Assembly: GCA_025839675.1 (NCBI GenBank)
Contig: CP104013.1
Coordinates: forward strand, 3,000,001 to 3,032,000
Source of the DNA: Candidatus Lokiarchaeum ossiferum
GTDB lineage: Archaea > Asgardarchaeota > Lokiarchaeia > Sigyniarchaeales > Promethearchaeaceae
Direction: 5' to 3'
DNA: 32,000 bases
The notes beneath the pieces are model-generated. The model made no database searches. It saw only the letters and a program-made list of their open reading frames with translations, and was not told where the DNA came from. Shown here piece by piece: positions 3,163 to 32,000 of this stretch. The translations under genes were made by a program, and so were the position numbers. The first letter of the stretch is position 1. The number at the start of each line of letters is the position of its first letter.

Positions 3163-3711
3163 ATGGCTTCAAAGACCCTATCATATTTCATAATAGGAGA
3201 AAGAATTGCTTTTCGACCATTAAAAGAAAAAAATATCCATCTCTATTCCAAATGGGTAAATAATCCGAAGAATAGAGCATTTATTCCATATCACTTTCCA
3301 ACCACATATGAAATTCGACAGAAGTGGGTTCAAAGGCAACAATTTAATGGTACTACATCGAAAATAATTTTAGAAATTTGGCATTTACATGACAAGCAAG
3401 CAATTGGATATGCTCAATTGGATGAAATCTCATGGATCGATAGAAAAGCGACGATGGGATATATTATAGGAGAAAACCAATATTGGAAAAAAGGCTTAGG
3501 AACTGAGACAATTCAGTTATTGGAGACTTATGCGTTTGAAGAACTAAATCTCAGAAAATTGAAAGCTTTGGTCATTCGAGATAATTTAGCTTCTGTTAAA
3601 GTGTTCGAAAAGTTAAAATATAGATTAGAAGGTGTTTTGGAAGGAGAAAATTTCTATTTAGGCAATTTTCGGGATGTTTTCATCTTTAGCAAATTCAAAA
3701 ATATTGAATAA
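3163..3711 (+). CDS. GNAT N-acetyltransferase, RimJ/RimL-like
   Basis: N-terminal L.FRPL...D pattern (IAFRPLKEKNIHLY) and core YWKKGLGTETIQLLETYAFEELNLRKLKALVIRDNLASVKVFEKLKY. ATG at 3163 is preferred to TTG at 3151. Confidence 0.75.
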   Translation: MASKTLSYFIIGERIAFRPLKEKNIHLYSKWVNNPKNRAFIPYHFPTTYEIRQKWVQRQQFNGTTSKIILEIWHLHDKQAIGYAQLDEISWIDRKATMGYIIGENQYWKKGLGTETIQLLETYAFEELNLRKLKALVIRDNLASVKVFEKLKYRLEGVLEGENFYLGNFRDVFIFSKFKNIE

Positions 3712-14469: not shown

Positions 14470-15273
14470 TTACTCTTTGATTTTTTCACTTAATTCAGCC
14501 TTCTTCTTTTTATCCCTGATATATACGAGTACGTTAGCAAGTATTAACATGAGAACTAAAACTCCGAAAATAATGTAAAAAATCATATTGAACATTCCAG
14601 ATTTTTGATCTAATTGATCGAGAGTCATTTTTTTAATATCATCACTAGTCATATCTACAAATATGATACTCCCCAAATAAGAAAAAAATAAAGCCCGAGG
14701 AACCGATCCGACAGCAGTTGCAATGTAATATTGTTTGGCTTTAATGTTGGATAACCCTGCAGCATAAGAAATAGGATCAAACATGATCACGGGAACTGCA
14801 CGACCAACAATAATGGCCCAAATTCCCCATTTTTCGATCCATTCATCCATAATTCCAATTATTTTGTCGGCAATACTGAGTTTGTCTCCTGTTGCTTCTA
14901 AAATTGATCGACCACCTTTATTTGCTACATAATATGTGATTGCAGCACTGAGCATAGATCCAATCACCCCTAAAACTGTTCCTTTCCAAAATCCAAAAAT
15001 GATTGAACCGGAAAGAAGAATCAATTCGGAAGGAATGGGTGCTATTAAACTTTGGATCACCATTAGGGCTAAAAATATAAAATAAGCCCAAAATCTCAAA
15101 TCTATTAAGGGAATAATGAAATATTTCAAAATGGTTTCAAATAGAAAGGTCTCTTCTACAATAGTAAGAATAAATACTCCTACAGAAATTATTGCAATGA
15201 GGATAAAGATGATGGCCATGAACGCTTTTTTTTTGGTCCATTCAAATTTGTGTTTATCTTGATTTTCTATCAT
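14470..15273 (-). CDS. DedA / TVP38-TMEM64 (VTT, 'SNARE-associated') family membrane protein, copy A
   Basis: QSLIAPIPSELILLSGSIIFG...GRAVPVIMFDPISYAAGLSNIKAKQYYIATAVGSVPRA matches the VTT-domain pattern. Multiple TM helices. Confidence 0.8.
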   Translation of the reverse strand: MIENQDKHKFEWTKKKAFMAIIFILIAIISVGVFILTIVEETFLFETILKYFIIPLIDLRFWAYFIFLALMVIQSLIAPIPSELILLSGSIIFGFWKGTVLGVIGSMLSAAITYYVANKGGRSILEATGDKLSIADKIIGIMDEWIEKWGIWAIIVGRAVPVIMFDPISYAAGLSNIKAKQYYIATAVGSVPRALFFSYLGSIIFVDMTSDDIKKMTLDQLDQKSGMFNMIFYIIFGVLVLMLILANVLVYIRDKKKKAELSEKIKE

Positions 15274-16091
15274 TATTCTTCAATTTTTTCTTGAATTTCT
15301 TGATGCGATTCACGATTATTCTTCTTTTCTCTTATATAGACAAGTAAATTGGCAAGTGCTAGCATCAAAACGAGTACACCGAAGATAATATAGAAGATTG
15401 TATTAAATTGCCCAGATACTTCTTCCAACCTTCCTGGAGGCAAATTCCGAATATAATCTGGATCTCGATTATCACCGAAGACTTGATTTCCCAAGAAAGC
15501 AAAGAAAAAGGCGCGAGGAATGGAACCAATAAGAGTTGCAATATAATATTGTTTGGCTTTGATATTTGACAATCCCGCTGCATAGGATACTGGATCAAAC
15601 ATAATTAAGGGGACTGCGCGACCAACAATGATAGCCCAAATACCCCAGCTTTCGATCCATTCATCCATAAGTCCAATCATTTTATCAGCAATACTCAACT
15701 TATCCCCAGTAGCTTCTAAGATAGCACGTCCACCTTTGTTTGACACATAATAGGTAATTGCAGCACTGAACATAGATCCAATTACGCCTAGTACAGTTCC
15801 CCACCAAAAACCAAAAATTAAGGATCCGGAAAGAAGAATTAATTCAGAAGGTATCGGAGCAATTAAGCTTTGGATCACCATAAGAAATAGAAAAACAAAA
15901 ACAGCCCAAAAACCGATTTCCAGTAAAGGTACTATAAAATAATCCCTTATTATAGTAAATAGGAAGGTTTCATCCATAATGGTAAGAATAAAAACCCCTA
16001 CAGAAATAATAACGATAATTATAAAAATAATGGCCATAATAACTTTTTTTTTTGTCCATTCAAACTTGCGTTTTTTGTGATTTTCTGACAT
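15273..16091 (-). CDS. DedA / TVP38-TMEM64 family membrane protein, copy B (tandem paralog)
   Basis: Collinear with copy A along the whole length, and most positions are identical by eye. Its stop overlaps the copy A start (TAATG). Confidence 0.8.
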   Translation of the reverse strand: MSENHKKRKFEWTKKKVIMAIIFIIIVIISVGVFILTIMDETFLFTIIRDYFIVPLLEIGFWAVFVFLFLMVIQSLIAPIPSELILLSGSLIFGFWWGTVLGVIGSMFSAAITYYVSNKGGRAILEATGDKLSIADKMIGLMDEWIESWGIWAIIVGRAVPLIMFDPVSYAAGLSNIKAKQYYIATLIGSIPRAFFFAFLGNQVFGDNRDPDYIRNLPPGRLEEVSGQFNTIFYIIFGVLVLMLALANLLVYIREKKNNRESHQEIQEKIEE

Positions 16092-22148: not shown

Positions 22149-22985
22149 TTATTTAGCTTTTGGAACGTATTGTCGTAAATTCAATTTTTGTCGTAAACTA
22201 TCGCCAATTTCAATTGCTTTCTTAGAGAGAGTTATAATTTCTTCAACGGTCCACACGGCGGAACCGTATTTCTGAATAGAAGTGACTTGTTTCTTTTCAT
22301 CGACTGCAAAGGCAATGCTTCCATCTAGACAAAGTTCTTCCGCAATGATGGGATCTACAAAAGTGACACCATCAATTTTTCCAAAAGTAATGCTTAAAGG
22401 AATTTCTTTGATTGGAAGAGGAGCATACGTGCCGTCCCATTCGGGATCTCCAGACTCACCTACTTTTGCACCAGGTAAATTTGTACTTAACAAGGCAGCA
22501 ATAGCGGCAATAGCGGAAGCATCGGTTAAATTTCCAAAGTAATCCATCATATAACAATCCACAAATAGAATGTAAACATGCTCGTAAGGAACGATGCACA
22601 AAGCTTCATAATCGATACAATCCGTATGTCGAATTCCACGATCAACCACACGTGCTAACTGAATAGAATCTTCTCCAGGTCGTCCAGGTTCAAACATGGA
22701 ACTCGCAATTGGAACAAATTCACTCATCACAGTACACACTCCTTTATCAGGATTATCTCCAAAAGGTCGACCAATATCATACTTTACACCGCACATGACT
22801 CGGGTTTCGCCAAGAAATACATCAGCGGAGCCTTCAGCTTTAGGGACAAAATTAGTTGTAATTTTAACTTCACGGAACTCAAACAACTCTCGCCCATCAA
22901 TACGTTTTCCTTGTCGGAGTAATTTGGAAATATATTTTTTTTCTAAGGAACTAACTACTCTATGAACATCCATCTTAATTGTCAT
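22149..22985 (-). CDS. rrp42: Exosome complex subunit Rrp42 (RNase PH-like, non-catalytic)
   Basis: RIDGRELFEFREVKI, GSADVFLGETRVMCGVK and two RNase-PH-type domains. The start is either ATG 22985 (11-nt overlap with Rrp41) or ATG 22973. The track's 23093 start lies inside the Rrp41 tail and is unlikely. Confidence 0.88.
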   Translation of the reverse strand: MTIKMDVHRVVSSLEKKYISKLLRQGKRIDGRELFEFREVKITTNFVPKAEGSADVFLGETRVMCGVKYDIGRPFGDNPDKGVCTVMSEFVPIASSMFEPGRPGEDSIQLARVVDRGIRHTDCIDYEALCIVPYEHVYILFVDCYMMDYFGNLTDASAIAAIAALLSTNLPGAKVGESGDPEWDGTYAPLPIKEIPLSITFGKIDGVTFVDPIIAEELCLDGSIAFAVDEKKQVTSIQKYGSAVWTVEEIITLSKKAIEIGDSLRQKLNLRQYVPKAK

Positions 22986-23943
22986 CTCCCTGTTTTGGGG
23001 CTTCAGGAGCCGGAGTTTCAGGAGCAGATGCTTCGGAAACAGGTGTTTCTGGAACTTTTTCAGATGATTCTCCTTGTTTCTCGGCAGGAACATCTACAGG
23101 TGCTTTAGGTGTAGCAGGAACTGCTTCAGAAGATGCTTCTTTAGTTTCTGGTACAGCAGAAGTATGTTTTGCAACTTCTACATTCTCGATCTTGACTTCA
23201 TCAGAGATTTGCATATATTTACTCTTTAAAGCTTCTAATTGTTTTTGATAAATATCTTCGGCACCTTTCAGAATGTATTTGAACCCTAATTCCATCTCTT
23301 CTGCGGTCATCTCTCCATCAAATTGTAATAAGGAAATCGTTTTATCTTTCATTACTACCACAGCAGGAACATCAGCTTGGCCAACTTTATCTTCTTTATC
23401 TCCAAGATCTAAAATAACTTTATCTTGGGCTTTTCCAGCAGCTACTCCTACCACGAGCGATTTCATCGGAATCCCTGCATCTGCGAGTGCGAGTGAAGCA
23501 GCTGTTGTTGATGCACATCGAGTGCCCCCGTCTGCAGCTACCACTTCAATATAAATTTCAATTTGGGAATCAGGATAAGCTTCTAAGAAGAGCACAGGCT
23601 CTAGGGCTTCACGAATTACTTTTGAAATTTCATTTTCCCGGCGATTTGGAGCCGGACTTTTGCGTTCATGCACAGAGAAAGTACACATTCGATAATAAAC
23701 TCGTAGGATTCCTCTGTCTGGTTTCGCCATATGGCGTGGATGAACTTCTCGGGGCCCATAGACCGCGGCGTAAATTTGATTTCCACCATGGCGAACTAAT
23801 GCTGAGCCTTGGGCGTTCTTAATAACGCCGACTTCACAACTAAACGAACGAATCTCATCAAGAGCTCGTCCATCTAACCTCGACCCATCTTCTTTGAAAC
23901 AAACTGGATCATGTGGTTCTTCAGTACCTTTTAAAATTGGCAT
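22975..23943 (-). CDS. rrp41: Exosome catalytic subunit Rrp41 (RNase PH) with a long low-complexity C-terminal tail
   Basis: RLDGRALDEIR, GSALVRHGGNQIYAAVYGPRE and ADGGTRCASTTAASLALADAGIP. ATG at 23943 lies 1 nt after the Rrp4 stop. The last ~65-79 aa are P/E/A/T/S-rich. Confidence 0.9.
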   Translation of the reverse strand: MPILKGTEEPHDPVCFKEDGSRLDGRALDEIRSFSCEVGVIKNAQGSALVRHGGNQIYAAVYGPREVHPRHMAKPDRGILRVYYRMCTFSVHERKSPAPNRRENEISKVIREALEPVLFLEAYPDSQIEIYIEVVAADGGTRCASTTAASLALADAGIPMKSLVVGVAAGKAQDKVILDLGDKEDKVGQADVPAVVVMKDKTISLLQFDGEMTAEEMELGFKYILKGAEDIYQKQLEALKSKYMQISDEVKIENVEVAKHTSAVPETKEASSEAVPATPKAPVDVPAEKQGESSEKVPETPVSEASAPETPAPEAPKQGDDN

Positions 23944-23944
23944 T

Positions 23945-24715
23945 TTATTCAATACCTCGTTTTTTCTTTTCTTCAGTAATATAATATTTTATTCGATCGG
24001 TTAATCCCGATGTGTGAGCTTCCCGTTCGATTTTATGAATCGCATCAATTAATAAACGTTCATGTTCAAAAGTCTTACCTTTAATCCAAATCCTTCCATT
24101 TTGGGCGACGAATACTTTACTATGTAATAAACTTTTTAGTAAAGCAATCATACTACCTTTCTTTCCGATCACTCGGGGGATTTTGGTTGCAGGAATGCTA
24201 ATTACCATCCCTGATTCGATAATTCCCAAATCTTGGCCGAGAGCGGTTAGATCTGGTTCAGAAATGCGAGAGCCTGAGAGGACTTTACAAATTATTTGAT
24301 CACCCATCTTCAATTTCTGCATATCTCCTTCTTCCTTTACCCTGTAAGTTCCAGCTTGTCTGCCGCCGTAACCTCGCCCACGATTGCTCCGTTTAAAAGC
24401 ATCCATAGGCTTTAAAATTCCAAGATATTTTGAGTTAATATCCATCAAGAATTTTACAGGTGTTTTTCCTATTACACGAGCGATAACTTTATCGCCCATT
24501 TGTGGATTATACAATCCATTTAAGGGCACCACATTCATATATTTACCTCGGGTTTCCTTAAATCCGACAAATAGTGAAATAATTTCACCGGCTTCAGTGC
24601 GTATTGCTCCCCGTCCAGGTATTAAACTCGGATCAGTTGACAAAGTCATTCCGGGGGTTACAATCTCACGAGAGGTAGTCGGAGTTGTGTTTTCTGGTGT
24701 TTCCATAATATTCAC
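23945..24715 (-). CDS. rrp4: Exosome RNA-binding cap subunit Rrp4 (N-terminal domain + S1 + KH)
   Basis: IVTPGMTL..PGRG, S1-like GDKVIARVIG...GDQIICKV, and KH IPRVIGKKGSMIALLK. The start is GTG 24715 or ATG 24706. Confidence 0.88.
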   Translation of the reverse strand: MNIMETPENTTPTTSREIVTPGMTLSTDPSLIPGRGAIRTEAGEIISLFVGFKETRGKYMNVVPLNGLYNPQMGDKVIARVIGKTPVKFLMDINSKYLGILKPMDAFKRSNRGRGYGGRQAGTYRVKEEGDMQKLKMGDQIICKVLSGSRISEPDLTALGQDLGIIESGMVISIPATKIPRVIGKKGSMIALLKSLLHSKVFVAQNGRIWIKGKTFEHERLLIDAIHKIEREAHTSGLTDRIKYYITEEKKKRGIE

Positions 24716-24766
24716 TTTTTTTGTTTTGCTATTAATAATTAATTTTAGTTCTTAGCGGTTTGAGGA

Positions 24767-25561
24767 CTAGTTCTGAAGCAATTTGCTTTGCATTCGTCCA
24801 TGGGTTAATTTGTTCAATTTCTCAAGCATTTCCATCTGGAGTCCTGCAGGAAGAGAGACCATCCCAACCCACGACCCATCAGTTTGCCATTCAGATTTTT
24901 TCACTTGGGCATATTTTTCAACGGTATTATACGCTTTAGCTGCATATATTGCCGGAATTTTAACCGCCATTTCAACCGATTCCATGCGAATAGGAATAAT
25001 TAATTGAATTTTCTTTAAGATTGTTTCAATTTGCTCTTCCGCAGTTTTGTCTAAATCAATGGACACACGTGCTTCTTCCATAGCTTTTTCAATACGTTTG
25101 GGAGGATGTGGTTTTTTGCTTTGTGGATTCACACAATTCCGAGCAAGGATAGTTATAATTTGTTTTTTCTTTTTCTCTACCCATTTCTGACGTTGTGCTT
25201 GGGTCCACAAAAATTCCCCATCCAAAACAAATTCCGCTGCGACTTCGCGTTCATTCGTTGTCTCAAATGCTTCTTGCAAATCTTCTGAAGTACATCGATC
25301 GGCTTTTTTTACATTTGTGAAGATATCATAAGTGGGAAAAATATTTGTTAGATCCAGATCAGGGTGATGTAAAAGATCCTCCCGAGTGAGAGCCTGATCT
25401 TGATTTTCTTTTTTGCGGTATTCGGCTAAAATCTTTTTGGCTTTCCACGCTTCTTCTGGATCGCTCACCATTTCAAAATTAGTTTTGCCTTTCCGTAATT
25501 TTACAATAATATATTTCCCTAGATCAAAATTCCCCTTTGGACTACCACGGTTTTGACTCAA
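24767..25561 (-). CDS. SBDS (Shwachman-Bodian-Diamond / Sdo1) family ribosome-maturation protein
   Basis: IVKLRKGKTNFEMVSDPEEAWKAKK, QRQKWVEKKKKQIITILARNCVNPQSKKPHPPKRIEKAMEEARVSID, and the C-terminal ferredoxin-like part. TTG start; there is no ATG nearby. Confidence 0.88.
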   Translation of the reverse strand: MSQNRGSPKGNFDLGKYIIVKLRKGKTNFEMVSDPEEAWKAKKILAEYRKKENQDQALTREDLLHHPDLDLTNIFPTYDIFTNVKKADRCTSEDLQEAFETTNEREVAAEFVLDGEFLWTQAQRQKWVEKKKKQIITILARNCVNPQSKKPHPPKRIEKAMEEARVSIDLDKTAEEQIETILKKIQLIIPIRMESVEMAVKIPAIYAAKAYNTVEKYAQVKKSEWQTDGSWVGMVSLPAGLQMEMLEKLNKLTHGRMQSKLLQN

Positions 25562-25862
25562 TATTTTCCACCTTAATTTTTAGATGACAGAATTCGTTCC
25601 GTAAGATGGATATGCAAATAAGATGGTATACAAAAACGGTGAATACTCTTCATAAAGAAAAGCCATTCTTTTCGAAATCCCATGCGTTTCGAACTCGATC
25701 TCTAAACAACAATATCTATAAAGCAAAGAACTAAAAAAAGTTTCGTGAAAAAAGTTATTTACCGCAAGTGGAATGAAGAGATCAAAATGGTTTTGATTTG
25801 ACATGATCGAAATTTTTATATGTTGTTTTGTCGAGATCTAGACAGAACTAGAAGGTGCTAAA

Positions 25863-26459
25863 ATGGTAACAATATTTAACATAGAAATCGATTTACTTAG
25901 CTTGCTTCCAGGTTTATTCGCTGCAATATTGTCGATATATAACTGGTTTCAAATGCGCAAACCTGCGAATATAAAGATTGGTAGAATAGTTAATTATGGA
26001 TTCATATCATCGAGTTATGAAAATGCATTATTTTTCTGTTTTCCGATGGTCTTTGAAAACATAAGCCCAAACAATGGGATCATTACAGAAATAAAAATCG
26101 GATTTCAATATGGTGGTGAAACAAAGTATATTGATACCGATGCCCGAGTACGACTTAATGAATTCAGTGGCGCATCGATGCCTCAAATGAATTATGAGAA
26201 ATTTACCGATGATGGATATCGTATTCTCTTACCGACCTATCCGATCCCAGTTGAAGGTTTTTCTTCAGAAAAAGTGACGATCATCTCAACAGTGTCGTTA
26301 GAAGATAAAATATTGTTGGCGGGGCAAGAAGGGAAAATGATAGTTGAAGTGTACTTTGGGGCAAACAAAGTCAATAAAACCACTTATGACTACTTTTTGT
26401 CGCAGGAATCCCTAGAATCAGACAATATTTTGATCTGGTTAAAAATGGTGGATAAATAA
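25863..26459 (+). CDS. Hypothetical protein: N-terminal TM anchor plus a beta-rich domain
   Basis: LLSLLPGLFAAILSIYNWF is hydrophobic and is followed by alternating beta-like segments. It is the only plus-strand gene inside the minus-strand superoperon. Confidence 0.5.
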   Translation: MVTIFNIEIDLLSLLPGLFAAILSIYNWFQMRKPANIKIGRIVNYGFISSSYENALFFCFPMVFENISPNNGIITEIKIGFQYGGETKYIDTDARVRLNEFSGASMPQMNYEKFTDDGYRILLPTYPIPVEGFSSEKVTIISTVSLEDKILLAGQEGKMIVEVYFGANKVNKTTYDYFLSQESLESDNILIWLKMVDK

Positions 26460-26711
26460 AAATATCAAAAAATAGACGCAAAAATTTATCCTTTTTTCAT
26501 TTTCATTTATTTTCCGAATTTCATTCCTATATCTACAAGACGTATAGTTTTAAAGTATTACAAACTTCGTGCTCGAATTTTAACTTTGGCTTAAATTTTT
26601 TCGATATTAGTAAAGATGCAAAAAGGTGATCGTGAGATGAATTTCGATGAACATATCACAAAAAGAAAATAATTTTTTGAGAAAGGGAAAAAAGAGAATA
26701 TAATCGGTGAA

Positions 26712-27416
26712 TTATTCTTCAAGCGAATCAAGAAGTGCTTGATTTTCTTCAACACTTAATAATTTCCAGAGTTTGTCTTCAGTGCTGATCATGGCAATTT
26801 CGAATCGATCTGTCTCAAAATCGCCTTCCACCACTTCTTTCAACGTGTTAATGGTCAATTTCTTCAATTCTTCTAAGGACATATCTGGATTGTATTCTTT
26901 TGAGAGATATTCGCGAGCCGCGGGTGAACCGTTGCCGATGGCGCAAGCGTGATAACCCCAAAATGCCCCTGATGGGTCGGTCAAAAACAATTTGGTCCCA
27001 TTATCAGGATCGACTCCCCCTACTAAGAGAGATACACCAAAGGGACGAACTCCTGCATTTTGAGTATATAATTGCATTTGGTCACATAAGTCGCGAGTAG
27101 TTTCTAAAATGCTTACTTTTTCGTTGTAGCTCAAAACGTTCACTTGCGCATGCACCCGTGCTTGATCAACCAAAGTGCGAGCATCTGCGGTAAGTCCTGC
27201 AATAGCGACACCAACGTGATCGTCGATCTTGAATAATTTTTCGCTACCAATGTATTCCTGAAGTGGTAATCGGCGTTTTTCTACTGCAAAAATGACTCCG
27301 TCTTTGCTCTTAACTCCAATTGCTGTGGTCCCTTGTCTGACTGCTTCGATTGCGTATTCTACTTGAAATAACCGTCCGTCTGGTGAAAATATCGTTATGG
27401 CTCTGTCATAGCCCAT
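26712..27416 (-). CDS. psmA: Proteasome subunit alpha
   Basis: MGYDRAITIFSPDGRLFQVEYAIEAV... is the canonical alpha-subunit N-terminus; 234 aa. Confidence 0.95.
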   Translation of the reverse strand: MGYDRAITIFSPDGRLFQVEYAIEAVRQGTTAIGVKSKDGVIFAVEKRRLPLQEYIGSEKLFKIDDHVGVAIAGLTADARTLVDQARVHAQVNVLSYNEKVSILETTRDLCDQMQLYTQNAGVRPFGVSLLVGGVDPDNGTKLFLTDPSGAFWGYHACAIGNGSPAAREYLSKEYNPDMSLEELKKLTINTLKEVVEGDFETDRFEIAMISTEDKLWKLLSVEENQALLDSLEE

Positions 27417-29018: not shown

Positions 29019-30050
29019 TTAAAAAACCCAGCCCGATTTGACATCGACCCGTTTGCGTTCCAATGTATTATTTTTCAATATAAAAGCAAATCCAAGAGTT
29101 TTAAATGCCTCATCGACGATGTCTTTGTTCAATGCGCACGTTTCCAAATATTGTACGTTAAGTTTTCTCGCGAGAGATTCGGCTTCTCCAGAAGAGATTT
29201 GTCGCTGTCCTTCTAAGTCTATTTTATTCCCCACCAAAATCAGGAGAGTATCTGGTTCCACAGTAATTATCTCATCATACCAATCTTGAATGTGTTCAAA
29301 AGATTCTTTGTTTGTCACATCAAATACTAAAAAACCAACGTTGGCTCCGAAATAGTACCCTTTGCGAATTTGTTTATAGATGGATTGACCACCTAAATCA
29401 TAAATGGAATATTCGATGTTGCATTTCCAACGTGGATACTTCACGCCTTTGCTCATGATATTAATCCCAAGGGTGCTTTTATAGTCGCCTTCGAATTTGT
29501 CATGAATGAAATGTTCAACGAGTGTGGTTTTTCCAACACCAGAATCTCCGCCTAAAACAGCTTTGATGACATAATCCCCTTCTTCTTTCATTTCAAACCG
29601 ATGAGGCCCTGAAATTAACCCATTATCATTAGATTGAAATTTAATTTTAGGAATGACGTAACTTATATTACGTCCCAGCCCAATTCGAGCAATTTTTTCA
29701 GTGCAGAGATACACATATGGGAGAAATTGAGCAGTATTTTCCTTTACAGAACTGATAAATATTGCGATGTAATCATCTCCAGCTACCGATACGATTACAT
29801 TAATGGATAGGGTGTTGAAAGAAAATGTGCTATGTTCTTGACGAATATTATCAAAGAAATAATCAAACATGCGAGAATAGAAGAAGTTAGAAATATCGGC
29901 TTTAGTCATTTCCGATAAATTTTCTTGTTCAATTTGGGTAACGATTTGTTTATCTGGATCCATAAGGCCAACAAATAGCAAATTTTCGCCCAAGGTCGAA
30001 AGCATTGATTGAAATAGAAGATCTACTTTCGGAATATCCATCGCTACCAT
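29019..30050 (-). CDS. Roadblock/LC7 (MglB-like) domain fused to a Ras-superfamily (Rab/Ras-like) small GTPase
   Basis: G1 GGDSGVGKTTL, switch-I YKSTLGINI, G3 DLGGQ, G4 GNKIDL, G5 ETCAL. The N-terminal ~125 aa show a helix-strand-strand-helix-strand-strand-helix pattern (LLFVGLMDPDKQIV...YIAIFISS...). There is no C-terminal CaaX. Confidence 0.85.
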   Translation of the reverse strand: MVAMDIPKVDLLFQSMLSTLGENLLFVGLMDPDKQIVTQIEQENLSEMTKADISNFFYSRMFDYFFDNIRQEHSTFSFNTLSINVIVSVAGDDYIAIFISSVKENTAQFLPYVYLCTEKIARIGLGRNISYVIPKIKFQSNDNGLISGPHRFEMKEEGDYVIKAVLGGDSGVGKTTLVEHFIHDKFEGDYKSTLGINIMSKGVKYPRWKCNIEYSIYDLGGQSIYKQIRKGYYFGANVGFLVFDVTNKESFEHIQDWYDEIITVEPDTLLILVGNKIDLEGQRQISSGEAESLARKLNVQYLETCALNKDIVDEAFKTLGFAFILKNNTLERKRVDVKSGWVF

Positions 30051-30086
30051 TATAATTTATTATATACGCCACCTTAATTTAAATTA

Positions 30087-31340
30087 ATGACATTGGATGA
30101 AAAAAACTCCAAGGAAAATTTAATTCACGACATTCATGTATTACAGACGAAATTAAAACAATACATCGATATTCGTACCCCATTTAAACTAACTGAGGAT
30201 CACCCAGAGAATTTTGATTTTGAGCGGTATCAAAAAATGAATCGACGATCCTTGGAATTAATCTTACAATCCTTGCAAGAACAGATCAAATTTTATGAAG
30301 AGGCAGATGCAAATCCTATTGATATTAAAAAACCGAAGAATATGCCTGTAAATGTATTTTTTGATATTTTTCTTAATTCAGGAATGGCCACTATCATTGA
30401 AAATGATCTCAGCCAAACCATTTTGATCAATCAACAAGCGTGTAATCTCTTTGGTTATTCTGCCCAAGAATTGTTATCACTTCATCCAACGGATCTACAA
30501 CATATAACCCAAGAAAAATCATTAGTACCTATCTATACTGATGGTAAATTAAACCGGTTCACAACTTATGAAACCAATTTTAAACGGAAAGATGGTAGTA
30601 TTTTTCCAGGGGAATTACGATTAATTCGATTAGAATATAATGTCTCAGTGTACGTAGTTGCAATGATCACTGATATTTCTAAACGAAAACGAGCAGAAGC
30701 AAAACAACAAGCCCTAATTGTAGAATTGCAAGAAGCATTATCAAAAATTCAGCAATTGCAAAAATTAGTCCCTGTATGTGGGATGTGTAAAAAAATTCGT
30801 AACGATCAAGGGTATTGGAATCAGCTTGATACTTTTGTGCAAGAAGTTGCAGATGTCTCTTTCAGCTATGAACTCTGCCCAGACTGCAAAAAAAAGAACT
30901 GGCGCTTGATTTTAAGTTATTTTGATGCGTTCTTTGGACCAATAATACTGCATTTCACACCAAAAGATGAAAAAATGGAAGAATTTCAAGACTTACCACT
31001 ATTGTTAGATTACGAAAAAGAGGGCTATTTTGAAATGACTTTGGGGCAAGCTCGTATTCTAAATTTGCAATATAAACTTTCAAGTATGCAAGCTCGCGGT
31101 CAACATGAATTGATCATGATATCATTTGCCGTGTTTGATGGAAATATCAATGAAGAAATCGGAAAAGAAATTATTGAGGATATCTTAGATCGAATGCTTA
31201 AAATCGAAAATGTGGAAATTGTTTTTAACAATCAATCCCAAAAAACCCCCGAAGGTATGGCAAAATTTAAAGAAATTGAAGAAATTTTCCAAGAAGTATA
31301 TAATTCCATCGAAAATAAGCTAAAAGCACATTTATATTAG
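30087..31340 (+). CDS. Sensor protein: N-terminal coiled coil + PAS + Cys4 module + C-terminal longin/roadblock-like domain
   Basis: PAS: FDIFLNSGMATIIEND...INQQACNLFGYSAQELL...FKRKDGSIFPGELRLIRL...MITDISKRKRAE. Cys4: LVPVCGMCKKIRNDQGYWNQLDTFVQEVADVSFSYELCPDCKKKNW (nt 30765-30902). A 145-aa tail follows, beginning ILSYFDAFFGPIILHFTP. Confidence 0.75.
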   Translation: MTLDEKNSKENLIHDIHVLQTKLKQYIDIRTPFKLTEDHPENFDFERYQKMNRRSLELILQSLQEQIKFYEEADANPIDIKKPKNMPVNVFFDIFLNSGMATIIENDLSQTILINQQACNLFGYSAQELLSLHPTDLQHITQEKSLVPIYTDGKLNRFTTYETNFKRKDGSIFPGELRLIRLEYNVSVYVVAMITDISKRKRAEAKQQALIVELQEALSKIQQLQKLVPVCGMCKKIRNDQGYWNQLDTFVQEVADVSFSYELCPDCKKKNWRLILSYFDAFFGPIILHFTPKDEKMEEFQDLPLLLDYEKEGYFEMTLGQARILNLQYKLSSMQARGQHELIMISFAVFDGNINEEIGKEIIEDILDRMLKIENVEIVFNNQSQKTPEGMAKFKEIEEIFQEVYNSIENKLKAHLY

Positions 31341-31351
31341 GTTGTTTTGCC

Positions 31352-32000
31352 ATGAGAAATAAACCGACGATCCAAATAATATTTTTTTCCCCAACTGGCA
31401 ATACTCGAAAAATATGTGCCACGATAGCCAACGGAACTCAATTACCGCTGGCATCTCCCCCCTTTTTAAATATTTCATCAATTAATCTCCGTGACAAAAA
31501 TAAGATTAACATTGCAGGAGATATTATCATTTTGGGATCACCCGTATATGTTGAAACGATGCCCAAGACGGTTTTTGAAGTTATTCAAAAACTGGAGGGA
31601 CAAGGGAAGTGGATCATTCCGGTGGCCGTAAATGGCAATGTGTCTTTTGGCAGATGTTTAGAAGAATTAATTGGGTTATTGCGTAACAGAGGTTTTAAAA
31701 TTCTTGCGGGAGCGAAGTTTGTAGGTCGTAATTCTCTTTCAAATGAGACCCTTCTTTTAGGAGAAAATCGCCCTGATGCAACAGATATTAAACGAGCCAC
31801 CAAATTTGGCCAAAATCTCTGGAAAAAATGGCAAGAAGGCCCCGAAGAAATCACCATTAAAGGAAGTATTCCTGACTTTATTCAGGGGCATCCTGAAATT
31901 CGGGCCCGAAGAATGGTCAAAATCCCGCAAATAGATCTTATATTGTGCACCAAATGTCGTGAATGTTGGGCAGCTTGTCCGGTTGAGGCAATTGATTTTG
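31352..32000 (+). CDS. Flavodoxin-like domain + 4Fe-4S ferredoxin-domain protein (3' end off window)
   Basis: Not in the ORF track because no stop is reached. I translated it by hand: MRNKPTIQIIFFSPTGNTRKICATIA...IIILGSPVYVETMP...IPVAVNGN... then LCTKCRECWAACPVEAIDF. It starts 11 nt after the PAS-gene stop. The antisense ORF 31585..31857 is spurious. Confidence 0.65.
   Translation, partial: MRNKPTIQIIFFSPTGNTRKICATIANGTQLPLASPPFLNISSINLRDKNKINIAGDIIILGSPVYVETMPKTVFEVIQKLEGQGKWIIPVAVNGNVSFGRCLEELIGLLRNRGFKILAGAKFVGRNSLSNETLLLGENRPDATDIKRATKFGQNLWKKWQEGPEEITIKGSIPDFIQGHPEIRARRMVKIPQIDLILCTKCRECWAACPVEAIDF

Follow-up and report, generated by a model that had tools for sequence, protein, structure and literature searches.

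Our analysis of a 32,000-nucleotide stretch of the Candidatus Lokiarchaeum ossiferum genome (contig CP104013.1, positions 3,000,001 to 3,032,000; hereafter, the window) brings to light two divergently transcribed genes that may constitute a signal-controlled small-GTPase switch. One codes for a Rab-like GTPase fused to an N-terminal roadblock domain, the other for a sensor protein combining a PAS domain, a four-cysteine (Cys4) module and a C-terminal longin domain whose predicted fold resembles those of NPRL2 and FLCN, components of eukaryotic GTPase-activating proteins (GAPs). We propose, with a confidence that stays somewhat short of even, that the sensor longin acts as a GAP for the neighboring GTPase. 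The sensor would dimerize, probably as a coiled coil, and its PAS domain would detect a signal that would pass via a signaling helix and the Cys4 module, probably holding zinc, to the longin. The latter would supply two features typical of eukaryotic longin GAPs, namely a GP motif and an arginine finger (R337), dock on the G domain of the GTPase, itself dimerized by its roadblock domain, and stimulate GTP hydrolysis, such that the signal would set the GTP/GDP state. The logic would parallel that of GATOR1 and FLCN acting on Rag GTPases, namely a longin-dimer GAP working on a roadblock-dimerized GTPase. The features of the locus are as follows (window coordinates).

29019–30050, minus strand: roadblock–Rab-like GTPase gene, 343 residues, NEF87_002556 (open reading frame and Pfam)
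29022–29039, minus strand: C-terminal tail KSGWVF of the GTPase
29082–29576, minus strand: Rab-like G domain, residues 159–323
29133–29144, minus strand: G5 box ETCA, residues 303–306
29217–29228, minus strand: G4 box NKID, residues 275–278
29385–29399, minus strand: G3 box DLGGQ, residues 218–222
29472–29474, minus strand: G2 box, Thr193
29526–29549, minus strand: G1 box GDSGVGKT, residues 168–175
29676–30050, minus strand: N-terminal MglB-type roadblock domain, residues 1–125 (alpha-beta-beta-alpha-beta-beta-beta-alpha)
30051–30086, no strand: divergent spacer between GTPase and sensor genes, 36 bp, 83% A+T
30087–31340, plus strand: sensor gene, 417 residues, NEF87_002557 (N-terminal helical region, PAS, signaling helix, Cys4, longin)
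30363–30704, plus strand: PAS domain, residues 93–206
30681–30770, plus strand: helical linker between PAS and Cys4, residues ~199–228 (from the sequence; conserved in alignments A4 and A6)
30771–30890, plus strand: Cys4 module, P-x-C-x2-C-K-K-I-R-N-D-x-G-Y-W ... C-P-x-C
30897–31337, plus strand: longin domain of predicted FLCN/NPRL2 type, residues 271–417
30936–30941, plus strand: GP motif, G284-P285
31062–31064, plus strand: invariant N326
31095–31097, plus strand: candidate arginine finger R337 (in A-R-G)
31352–32000, plus strand: predicted EFR1-family ferredoxin gene (flavodoxin-like domain and 4Fe-4S), running off the window end

This layout agrees with that of the initial annotation in its coordinates, open reading frames (ORFs), A+T-rich spacer and the 11 nt that separate the sensor stop from the ATG of the ferredoxin gene. 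A protein look-up retrieved identical or near-identical entries for the GTPase and the sensor from Ca. Lokiarchaeum ossiferum B-35 (NEF87_002556 and NEF87_002557), which implies that both are real genes and not chance ORFs. They are deposited as “hypothetical protein / Rab family GTPase” (with a RefSeq start at Met4, giving 340 residues) and “hypothetical protein / PAS (PAC) domain-containing protein”, and none of the sources looked up names their roadblock or longin parts. Between 26000 and 32000, we found no Rfam family match and no meaningful repeats.

The GTPase belongs to the Ras superfamily, is Rab-like and possesses five of the five G boxes. Its residues 163–319 match Pfam Ras with an E-value of 1.3e-42 (145.6 bits against a cut-off of 21.6), in addition to Roc and, more weakly, Arf (E 2.5e-11), and the closest solved relatives of its G domain are Rab11, Sec4 and a Thorarchaeal Rab (Thor-Rab). 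It has the catalytic glutamine (Q222 in DLGGQ) and a switch I without arginine, implying that it could use an arginine finger supplied in trans. There was no match to Gtr1_RagA (PF04670) at E ≤ 1; some homologues of the family give weak ones. A eukaryotic-type Rab prenylation cysteine was not found in the C-terminus, which ends in VDVKSGWVF. Residues 1–159 had no direct Pfam match at E ≤ 10, including to Robl_LC7 (PF03259). Nevertheless, residues 1–125 are a roadblock domain, as concluded from three types of evidence. They align without gaps with the N-terminus of the paralogue P0032 (29% identity, E 5e-16), of which residues 24–99 do pass PF03259 (24.9 bits, cut-off 23); a 30-sequence profile of the GTPase family (A3) matches the “Roadblock/LC7 domain protein” 9jue in the PDB (E 1.1e-4); and the AlphaFold2 (AF2) model, with a mean predicted local distance difference test (pLDDT) value of 88, shows the roadblock topology, having as best Foldseek match MglB (E 1.5e-6) followed by weaker ones to MglC, MK-D1 Roadblock3 and LAMTOR subunits. 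The fusion of an MglB-like domain to a five-box GTPase put forward in the initial annotation is thereby confirmed. Full-length sequence searches showed that this architecture, of ~330–340 residues, is frequent in Promethearchaeota; a word-index search with the N-terminal domain alone gave no match.

For the C-terminal domain of the sensor, Pfam and NCBIfam offer no family, only sub-threshold hints to Folliculin and Afi1, and the longin alignment, used as a profile against the PDB, yielded nothing but spurious helical-bundle designs, so that its relationship with NPRL2 and FLCN is visible through fold comparison only. Its AF2 model, based on a 65-sequence alignment, reached a pLDDT of 92.8 and a predicted template-modeling score of 0.88, and displays a beta-beta-alpha-beta-beta-beta-alpha-alpha topology without N-terminal helix (E3–11, E15–22, H28–39, E44–50, E53–63, E71–81, H87–102 and H119–147, where E is strand and H helix). 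The best Foldseek matches in the PDB were NPRL2 within GATOR1 (E 1.5e-5 to 3e-4, query TM-score up to 0.61), yeast Npr2 and FLCN, which outranked the SNARE and DENN longins DENND10, Ykt6 and VAMP7. Sequence comparison of these chains with human NPRL2 and FLCN confirmed their identity; further GATOR1 and FLCN-FNIP2 chains among the top matches are presumably NPRL3 and FNIP2. Judging from the modeled fold, the sensor thus ends with a longin of the FLCN/NPRL2 GAP type, in line with the longin-like domain suspected in the initial annotation rather than with an unrelated fold. Five residues, G15, P16, N57, R68 and G69, are invariant in the 65 members of the family aligned, and their sensor counterparts (G284, P285, N326, R337 and G338) are also invariant in the three aligned sensor orthologues. 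In the model, the GP motif sits at the start of beta2 and the arginine in the beta4-beta5 loop. With hhalign, the GP region aligned with NPRL2 10–35 (E 6.7e-4), placing G284-P285 on NPRL2 G20-P21, and the ARG of R337 fell on the L-A-R164-G of FLCN in a weak local match (E 0.042). Weak when taken alone, these two matches agree with the fold match and the secondary-structure positions. According to PMC12290439, the GP motif and the arginine finger are specific to GAP longins (FLCN, NPRL2, SMCR8 and C9orf72) and absent from GEF-type longins (GEF, guanine nucleotide exchange factor), and a class of Asgard longins bears both.

The GTPase and sensor genes are kept as a divergent pair in four lineages besides that of the window, five in all, down to 46% identity and with spacers of 35–62 bp, which bears out the linkage expected from the initial annotation. 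A metagenome scan added one extra orthologue. The related loci are the following.

L001: GTPase 89% identical to that of the window; spacer of similar length (alignment A7)
L003–L005: GTPase 83% identical to that of the window; spacer 36 bp
L056: sensor 57% identical; upstream ORF an orthologous roadblock domain (hidden Markov model E 3e-46); spacer ~35 bp
L053: GTPase 46% and sensor 46% identical to those of the window; spacer 62 bp

The flanks vary from locus to locus, both beyond the GTPase (MFS gene, 233-residue ORF or 545-residue ORF) and beyond the sensor (ferredoxin gene, Cys-rich membrane protein gene or 62-residue ORF). Five roadblock-GTPase paralogues (≤42–44% identity) have no longin gene within 5–6 kb, and the longin pairing is specific to this orthologue group. 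The sensor-paired GTPases read to their C-terminus (window, L001 and L053, at 2630–2647 in the latter) share the tail KSGWVF/KSGWRF, absent from the paralogues read (P0012, P0026 and P0032); this K-S-G-W-[VR]-F tail could be a docking or membrane motif. As a side observation, the L001 sensor is interrupted at ~3390–3425, immediately beyond the PAS domain, by an in-frame stop in a locally scrambled stretch and is annotated as two genes (204 and 206 residues), which may be due to an assembly error or to a recent pseudogene or split; a gelsolin-domain gene (L001 12751–13560) located ~9 kb from the pair is consistent with an Asgard origin.

A second, independent Cys4-longin sensor, the multi-transmembrane protein P0159, also has a divergent small-GTPase gene upstream, in this case at 61 bp and of the Arf family (Pfam Arf E 9.7e-13). 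P0159 (locus L060, 2–2153) is a 608-residue protein with a multi-transmembrane region, a cytoplasmic domain, the Cys4 module and the longin; P0129, P0140, P0171 and P0189 share this architecture, whose cytoplasmic middle domain looks roadblock-like by eye. Since small GTPases represent ~2% of Lokiarchaeal genes (the MK-D1 genome has 74 of them; PMC10933270), the P0159-Arf pairing is unlikely to be due to chance (~2% per flank); this locus was chosen for inspection after the pairing hypothesis had been formed. Chance might still be invoked for the window pair itself, small GTPases being ~2% of genes and longins numerous, with its conservation reflecting nothing but local synteny. In MK-D1, GTPase genes do not as a rule share operons with genes for roadblock or longin proteins (Tran et al., PMC10933270); moreover, our pair was singled out only after being seen, and the adjacency of the ferredoxin gene did prove to be local synteny. 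However, the pair persists down to 46% identity despite the turnover of both outer flanks, and an unrelated Cys4-longin sensor, inspected once the hypothesis was in place, has its own divergent GTPase. We therefore regard simple chance as highly improbable.

An exhaustive HMMER search with sensor residues 270–417 yielded a longin family of 115 cluster representatives, and we counted domain fusions over its 111 full-length members. The longin is usually N-terminal and, in 33 of the 111, is directly followed by an Arf-type G domain (P-loop GLDxAGKT, best PDB match Arf1); PAS domains occur in 35, HATPase_c in 12 and V4R in three. When the longin is C-terminal, the Cys4 module precedes it in 13 of 13 proteins, whose sensory portions are diverse (PAS, a membrane domain of VUPS type or another multi-transmembrane family) and three of which have short or truncated N-terminal parts. 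Two apparent exceptions to this rule correspond to a weak internal match (P0230, E 0.12) and to a tandem longin duplication (P0240). The two P0240 copies are nearly identical, both with GP and arginine, and could form an intramolecular longin “dimer”.

The prevalence of Arf-type G domains in these fusions raises the possibility that the sensor longin acts on Arf-like GTPases encoded elsewhere, or within longin dimers, its neighbor being merely co-expressed from the promoter region they share, or part of the same pathway without direct contact. All of the 31–33 natural fusions are indeed with Arf-type domains, the independent L060 pair also involves an Arf-family GTPase, and the substrates of longin GAPs in eukaryotes are Rag and Arf proteins (PMC12290439). 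By contrast, the GTPase and the sensor co-diverge (46%/46%, and 57%) and stay adjacent while other neighbors change, and the pairing is restricted to one roadblock-GTPase orthologue group; on balance, a target lying elsewhere appears to us quite unlikely.

The N-terminal half of the sensor is of prokaryotic type. The PAS and Cys4 assignments of the initial annotation hold: PAS_9 covers residues 102–198 with 48.2 bits against a cut-off of 27, TIGR00229 gives 57.4 bits against 22.9, and the cysteines are C231, C234, C264 and C267. The nearest solved PAS is the LOV domain of YtvA; we ruled out a LOV photoreceptor, as the flavin-adduct cysteine is missing (YtvA NCRFLQ aligns with HPTDLQH in the sensor). 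The helical linker that follows is, by its sequence, probably a coiled-coil signaling helix, and the Cys4 module probably binds zinc. No Pfam or NCBIfam model and no DNA-binding fold or family matches this module, and its motif string was not found in the literature searched. A word-index search retrieved bacterial response-regulator (REC) and PAS proteins that end with the Cys4 module alone, and a pattern scan of GTDB species-representative genomes located it, again ending REC and PAS signaling proteins, in 45 bacterial loci (L008–L052) from Desulfobacterota, Myxococcota, Planctomycetota/Scalindua, Verrucomicrobiota and others. This pattern scan, made with a Cys4-longin query and keyed on the Cys4 motif, found only bacterial proteins, matching query residues 1–51 to 1–69, namely the linker, the Cys4 motif and a few residues beyond. 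Over the bacterial copies the motif reads P-x-C-x2-C-K-K-[IV]-[RK]-[ND]-D-x-G-x-W ... C-P-x-C, and the module looks like a widespread, undescribed output or linker module.

That Cys4 alone can follow REC or PAS in bacteria, and can thus be an output by itself, suggests another interpretation, in which the sensor would be a one-component transcription regulator of the GTPase gene, with Cys4 as its output (e.g., a zinc ribbon binding nucleic acids or the transcription machinery) and the longin serving for dimerization only. Divergent regulator-target pairs are common, and the 36-bp spacer might be controlled by a bound protein. Its A+T content is 83%, compared with 65% for the whole window, and the A7 alignment reveals in it two conserved A+T, TATA-like blocks, each adjoining the start of the opposite gene (the GTPase start for TATAATTTATTA, the sensor ATG for TTAATTTAAATTA), from which we infer two overlapping promoters with back-to-back TATA boxes for leaderless transcripts. 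Nevertheless, the lack of any DNA-binding fold or family match for Cys4 speaks against such a regulator, which would also leave unexplained the invariant GP and arginine and the fusion of family longins to G domains. We judge it very unlikely.

Returning to the proposed GAP role of the longin, several points weigh against it. In its natural fusions the longin family is joined to Arf-like G domains, but the window neighbor is Rab-like (Ras E 1e-42 versus Arf E 2.5e-11). Eukaryotic longin GAPs are heterodimers with a second longin and have DENN or NPRL2-C domains; here, the sensor ends with the longin, with no C-terminal DENN or NPRL2-specific domain, and no second longin gene occurs in the window or the related loci examined. 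The equivalence of R337 with NPRL2 R78/FLCN R164 is weak by sequence (hhalign probability 1–27%), and the pairing is seen in six loci only, the Cys4-longin loci L007, L061 and L062 being too short to judge. Finally, longin and roadblock platforms mostly act as GEFs or scaffolds, as exemplified by TRAPP, Mon1-Ccz1, DENN and Ragulator. The longin may accordingly bind the neighboring GTPase as a GEF, as a nucleotide-state-specific scaffold or effector platform, or as a heterodimer partner of its roadblock domain, and not as a GAP. The predominance of GEFs and scaffolds among characterized platforms (PMC10933270) favors this, the gene-pairing evidence fits it equally well, and so does the lack of the second longin subunit and the DENN/NPRL2-C domains of eukaryotic GAP complexes. 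However, the GP motif and the beta4-beta5-loop arginine are invariant across the family and, according to PMC12290439, set GAP longins apart from GEF-type ones, which lack them, and the nearest structures are NPRL2 and FLCN, not the TRAPP, Mon1 or DENN longins. We see a GEF or scaffold function as unlikely, though less so than the other alternatives. A more ambitious version of the GAP proposal, which we find somewhat doubtful, is that the locus represents a prokaryotic ancestor-type form of the Rag-GATOR1/FLCN switch, with an arginine-finger longin GAP acting on a roadblock-dimerized GTPase and gated by a bacterial-style PAS-Cys4 part, and that a cassette of this type, with a Cys4-longin sensor divergent from a GTPase, serves Asgard archaea in general to couple environmental signals to small GTPases. 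On this view, the GAP-longin/GTPase logic of nutrient signaling in eukaryotes would be older than the eukaryotes themselves.

The initial annotation extended the system to the flavodoxin/FeS gene found 11 nt after the sensor and read from it a redox signal. The gene is indeed there and probably codes for an EFR1-family ferredoxin: its product, cut by the window end, scores 55.9 bits against NCBIfam NF038196 (threshold 75), and the full-length L001 orthologue, 79% identical, reaches 77.1 bits. Its linkage, however, is limited to relatives with GTPases at least 83% identical to that of the window, and no ferredoxin gene lies beside the 57% (L056) or 46% (L053) sensor orthologues; being adjacent only in close relatives, it does not belong to the conserved system and probably stands outside the switch. 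We thus rejected a redox chain through this gene as a conserved feature, its adjacency being local synteny only, and nothing else in our analysis points to a redox signal.

As for the other genes of the window, the pair is preceded by an MFS transporter gene and, immediately upstream of the latter and the GTPase gene, by a minus-strand run (22149–27416) of two RNase PH-domain (exosome-type, Rrp41/Rrp42-like), Rrp4-like, SBDS and proteasome-alpha genes, which we take to be the archaeal exosome/proteasome superoperon. L003 likewise has a proteasome-alpha gene close to the pair. In the window, the SBDS gene is separated from that of proteasome alpha by a 198-residue ORF (25863–26459) with a predicted N-terminal hydrophobic segment and no Pfam match. 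Further away (14470–16091), two tandem genes of 267 and 272 residues each code for a VTT (VMP1/TMEM41/Tvp38, DedA-type) domain. In two other loci (L057, 5001–8279, and L058, 5001–9615), two further roadblock-GTPase homologues, P0032 and P0061 (each assigned to Promethearchaeota/Lokiarchaeum), lie upstream of the same run of Cbf5/TruB, methyltransferase and Rpb5 (RpoH) genes, which in L058 is followed by a gene of the RNA polymerase Rpb2 family; this paralogue thus seems to have a conserved housekeeping neighborhood.

Small GTPases, roadblock proteins and longins number in the dozens in Asgard genomes, yet hardly any has been assigned a partner, since their genes seldom cluster (PMC10933270). 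The locus described here, from an organism in culture, provides a candidate pair that is both conserved and specific, with a built-in sensory input and mutational predictions (R337 and G284/P285). GAP activity, if confirmed, would make the sensor the first longin GAP known from a prokaryote and would imply that the logic of mTORC1 control, a longin GAP plus a roadblock-bearing GTPase, predates eukaryotes and was wired to prokaryotic sensor modules. We found no paper combining Asgard, longin, PAS domain and GTPase in the literature searched, against which three elements appear to be new: the conservation of a divergent arrangement with one particular GTPase, the obligatory Cys4 before C-terminal longins, and the second, independent sensor-GTPase pair.

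Among known systems, the best structural matches of the sensor longin come from GATOR1 (NPRL2-NPRL3-DEPDC5), which acts on RagA, and FLCN-FNIP2, acting on RagC. They share with it the longin fold, the GP before beta2 and an arginine in what is probably the equivalent loop (ARG in the sensor, L-A-R164-G in FLCN). Like the Rag proteins, the window GTPase has a roadblock domain, a putative dimerization unit, and its module is wired to a sensing input. By contrast, the window locus lacks DENN, NPRL2-C, a DEPDC5 partner or a second, non-catalytic longin gene nearby, and it has its longin at the C-terminus, as the putative output of a PAS-Cys4 sensor of prokaryotic type. Its roadblock domain is N-terminal and not C-terminal as in Rag/Gtr, and its G domain is Rab-like, with no Gtr1_RagA match. 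The Arf GAP C9orf72-SMCR8 uses GP/arginine-finger longins, on Arf-type GTPases, and Asgard family members are fused to or paired with Arf-like proteins; nonetheless, the window partner is Rab-like, and the locus has neither a DENN domain nor WDR41. MglA-MglB likewise combines a roadblock with a Ras-superfamily GTPase, MglB being the top structural match of the window N-terminal domain. However, the roadblock of the window is fused to the GTPase and is not a stand-alone GAP, the G domain resembles Rab and not MglA, and the candidate GAP is the longin.

Within the Asgard archaea, the initial annotation was aware of no prokaryotic PAS sensor linked to a GTPase-regulatory domain; this does not hold, since NPRL2-like longins fused to two-component signaling domains are already known from Fig. 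5c of Liu et al. (2020/2021). The window sensor is a member of the class formed by these longins and the “FLCN/SMCR8-type” ones of PMC12290439, for which the accessible portions of both sources report no partner GTPase, gene pairing or Cys4 module. Which GTPases are the partners of the GP-motif Asgard longins, and whether these longins are GAPs, is a question posed in PMC12290439. Roadblock- and longin-GTPase fusions are known as well, the former architecture having been catalogued for MK-D1 (Tran et al. 2024, PMC10933270). In that survey, GTPase genes are generally not clustered with regulator genes, whereas the orthologue group of the window does cluster, and it is this difference that makes the pair useful.

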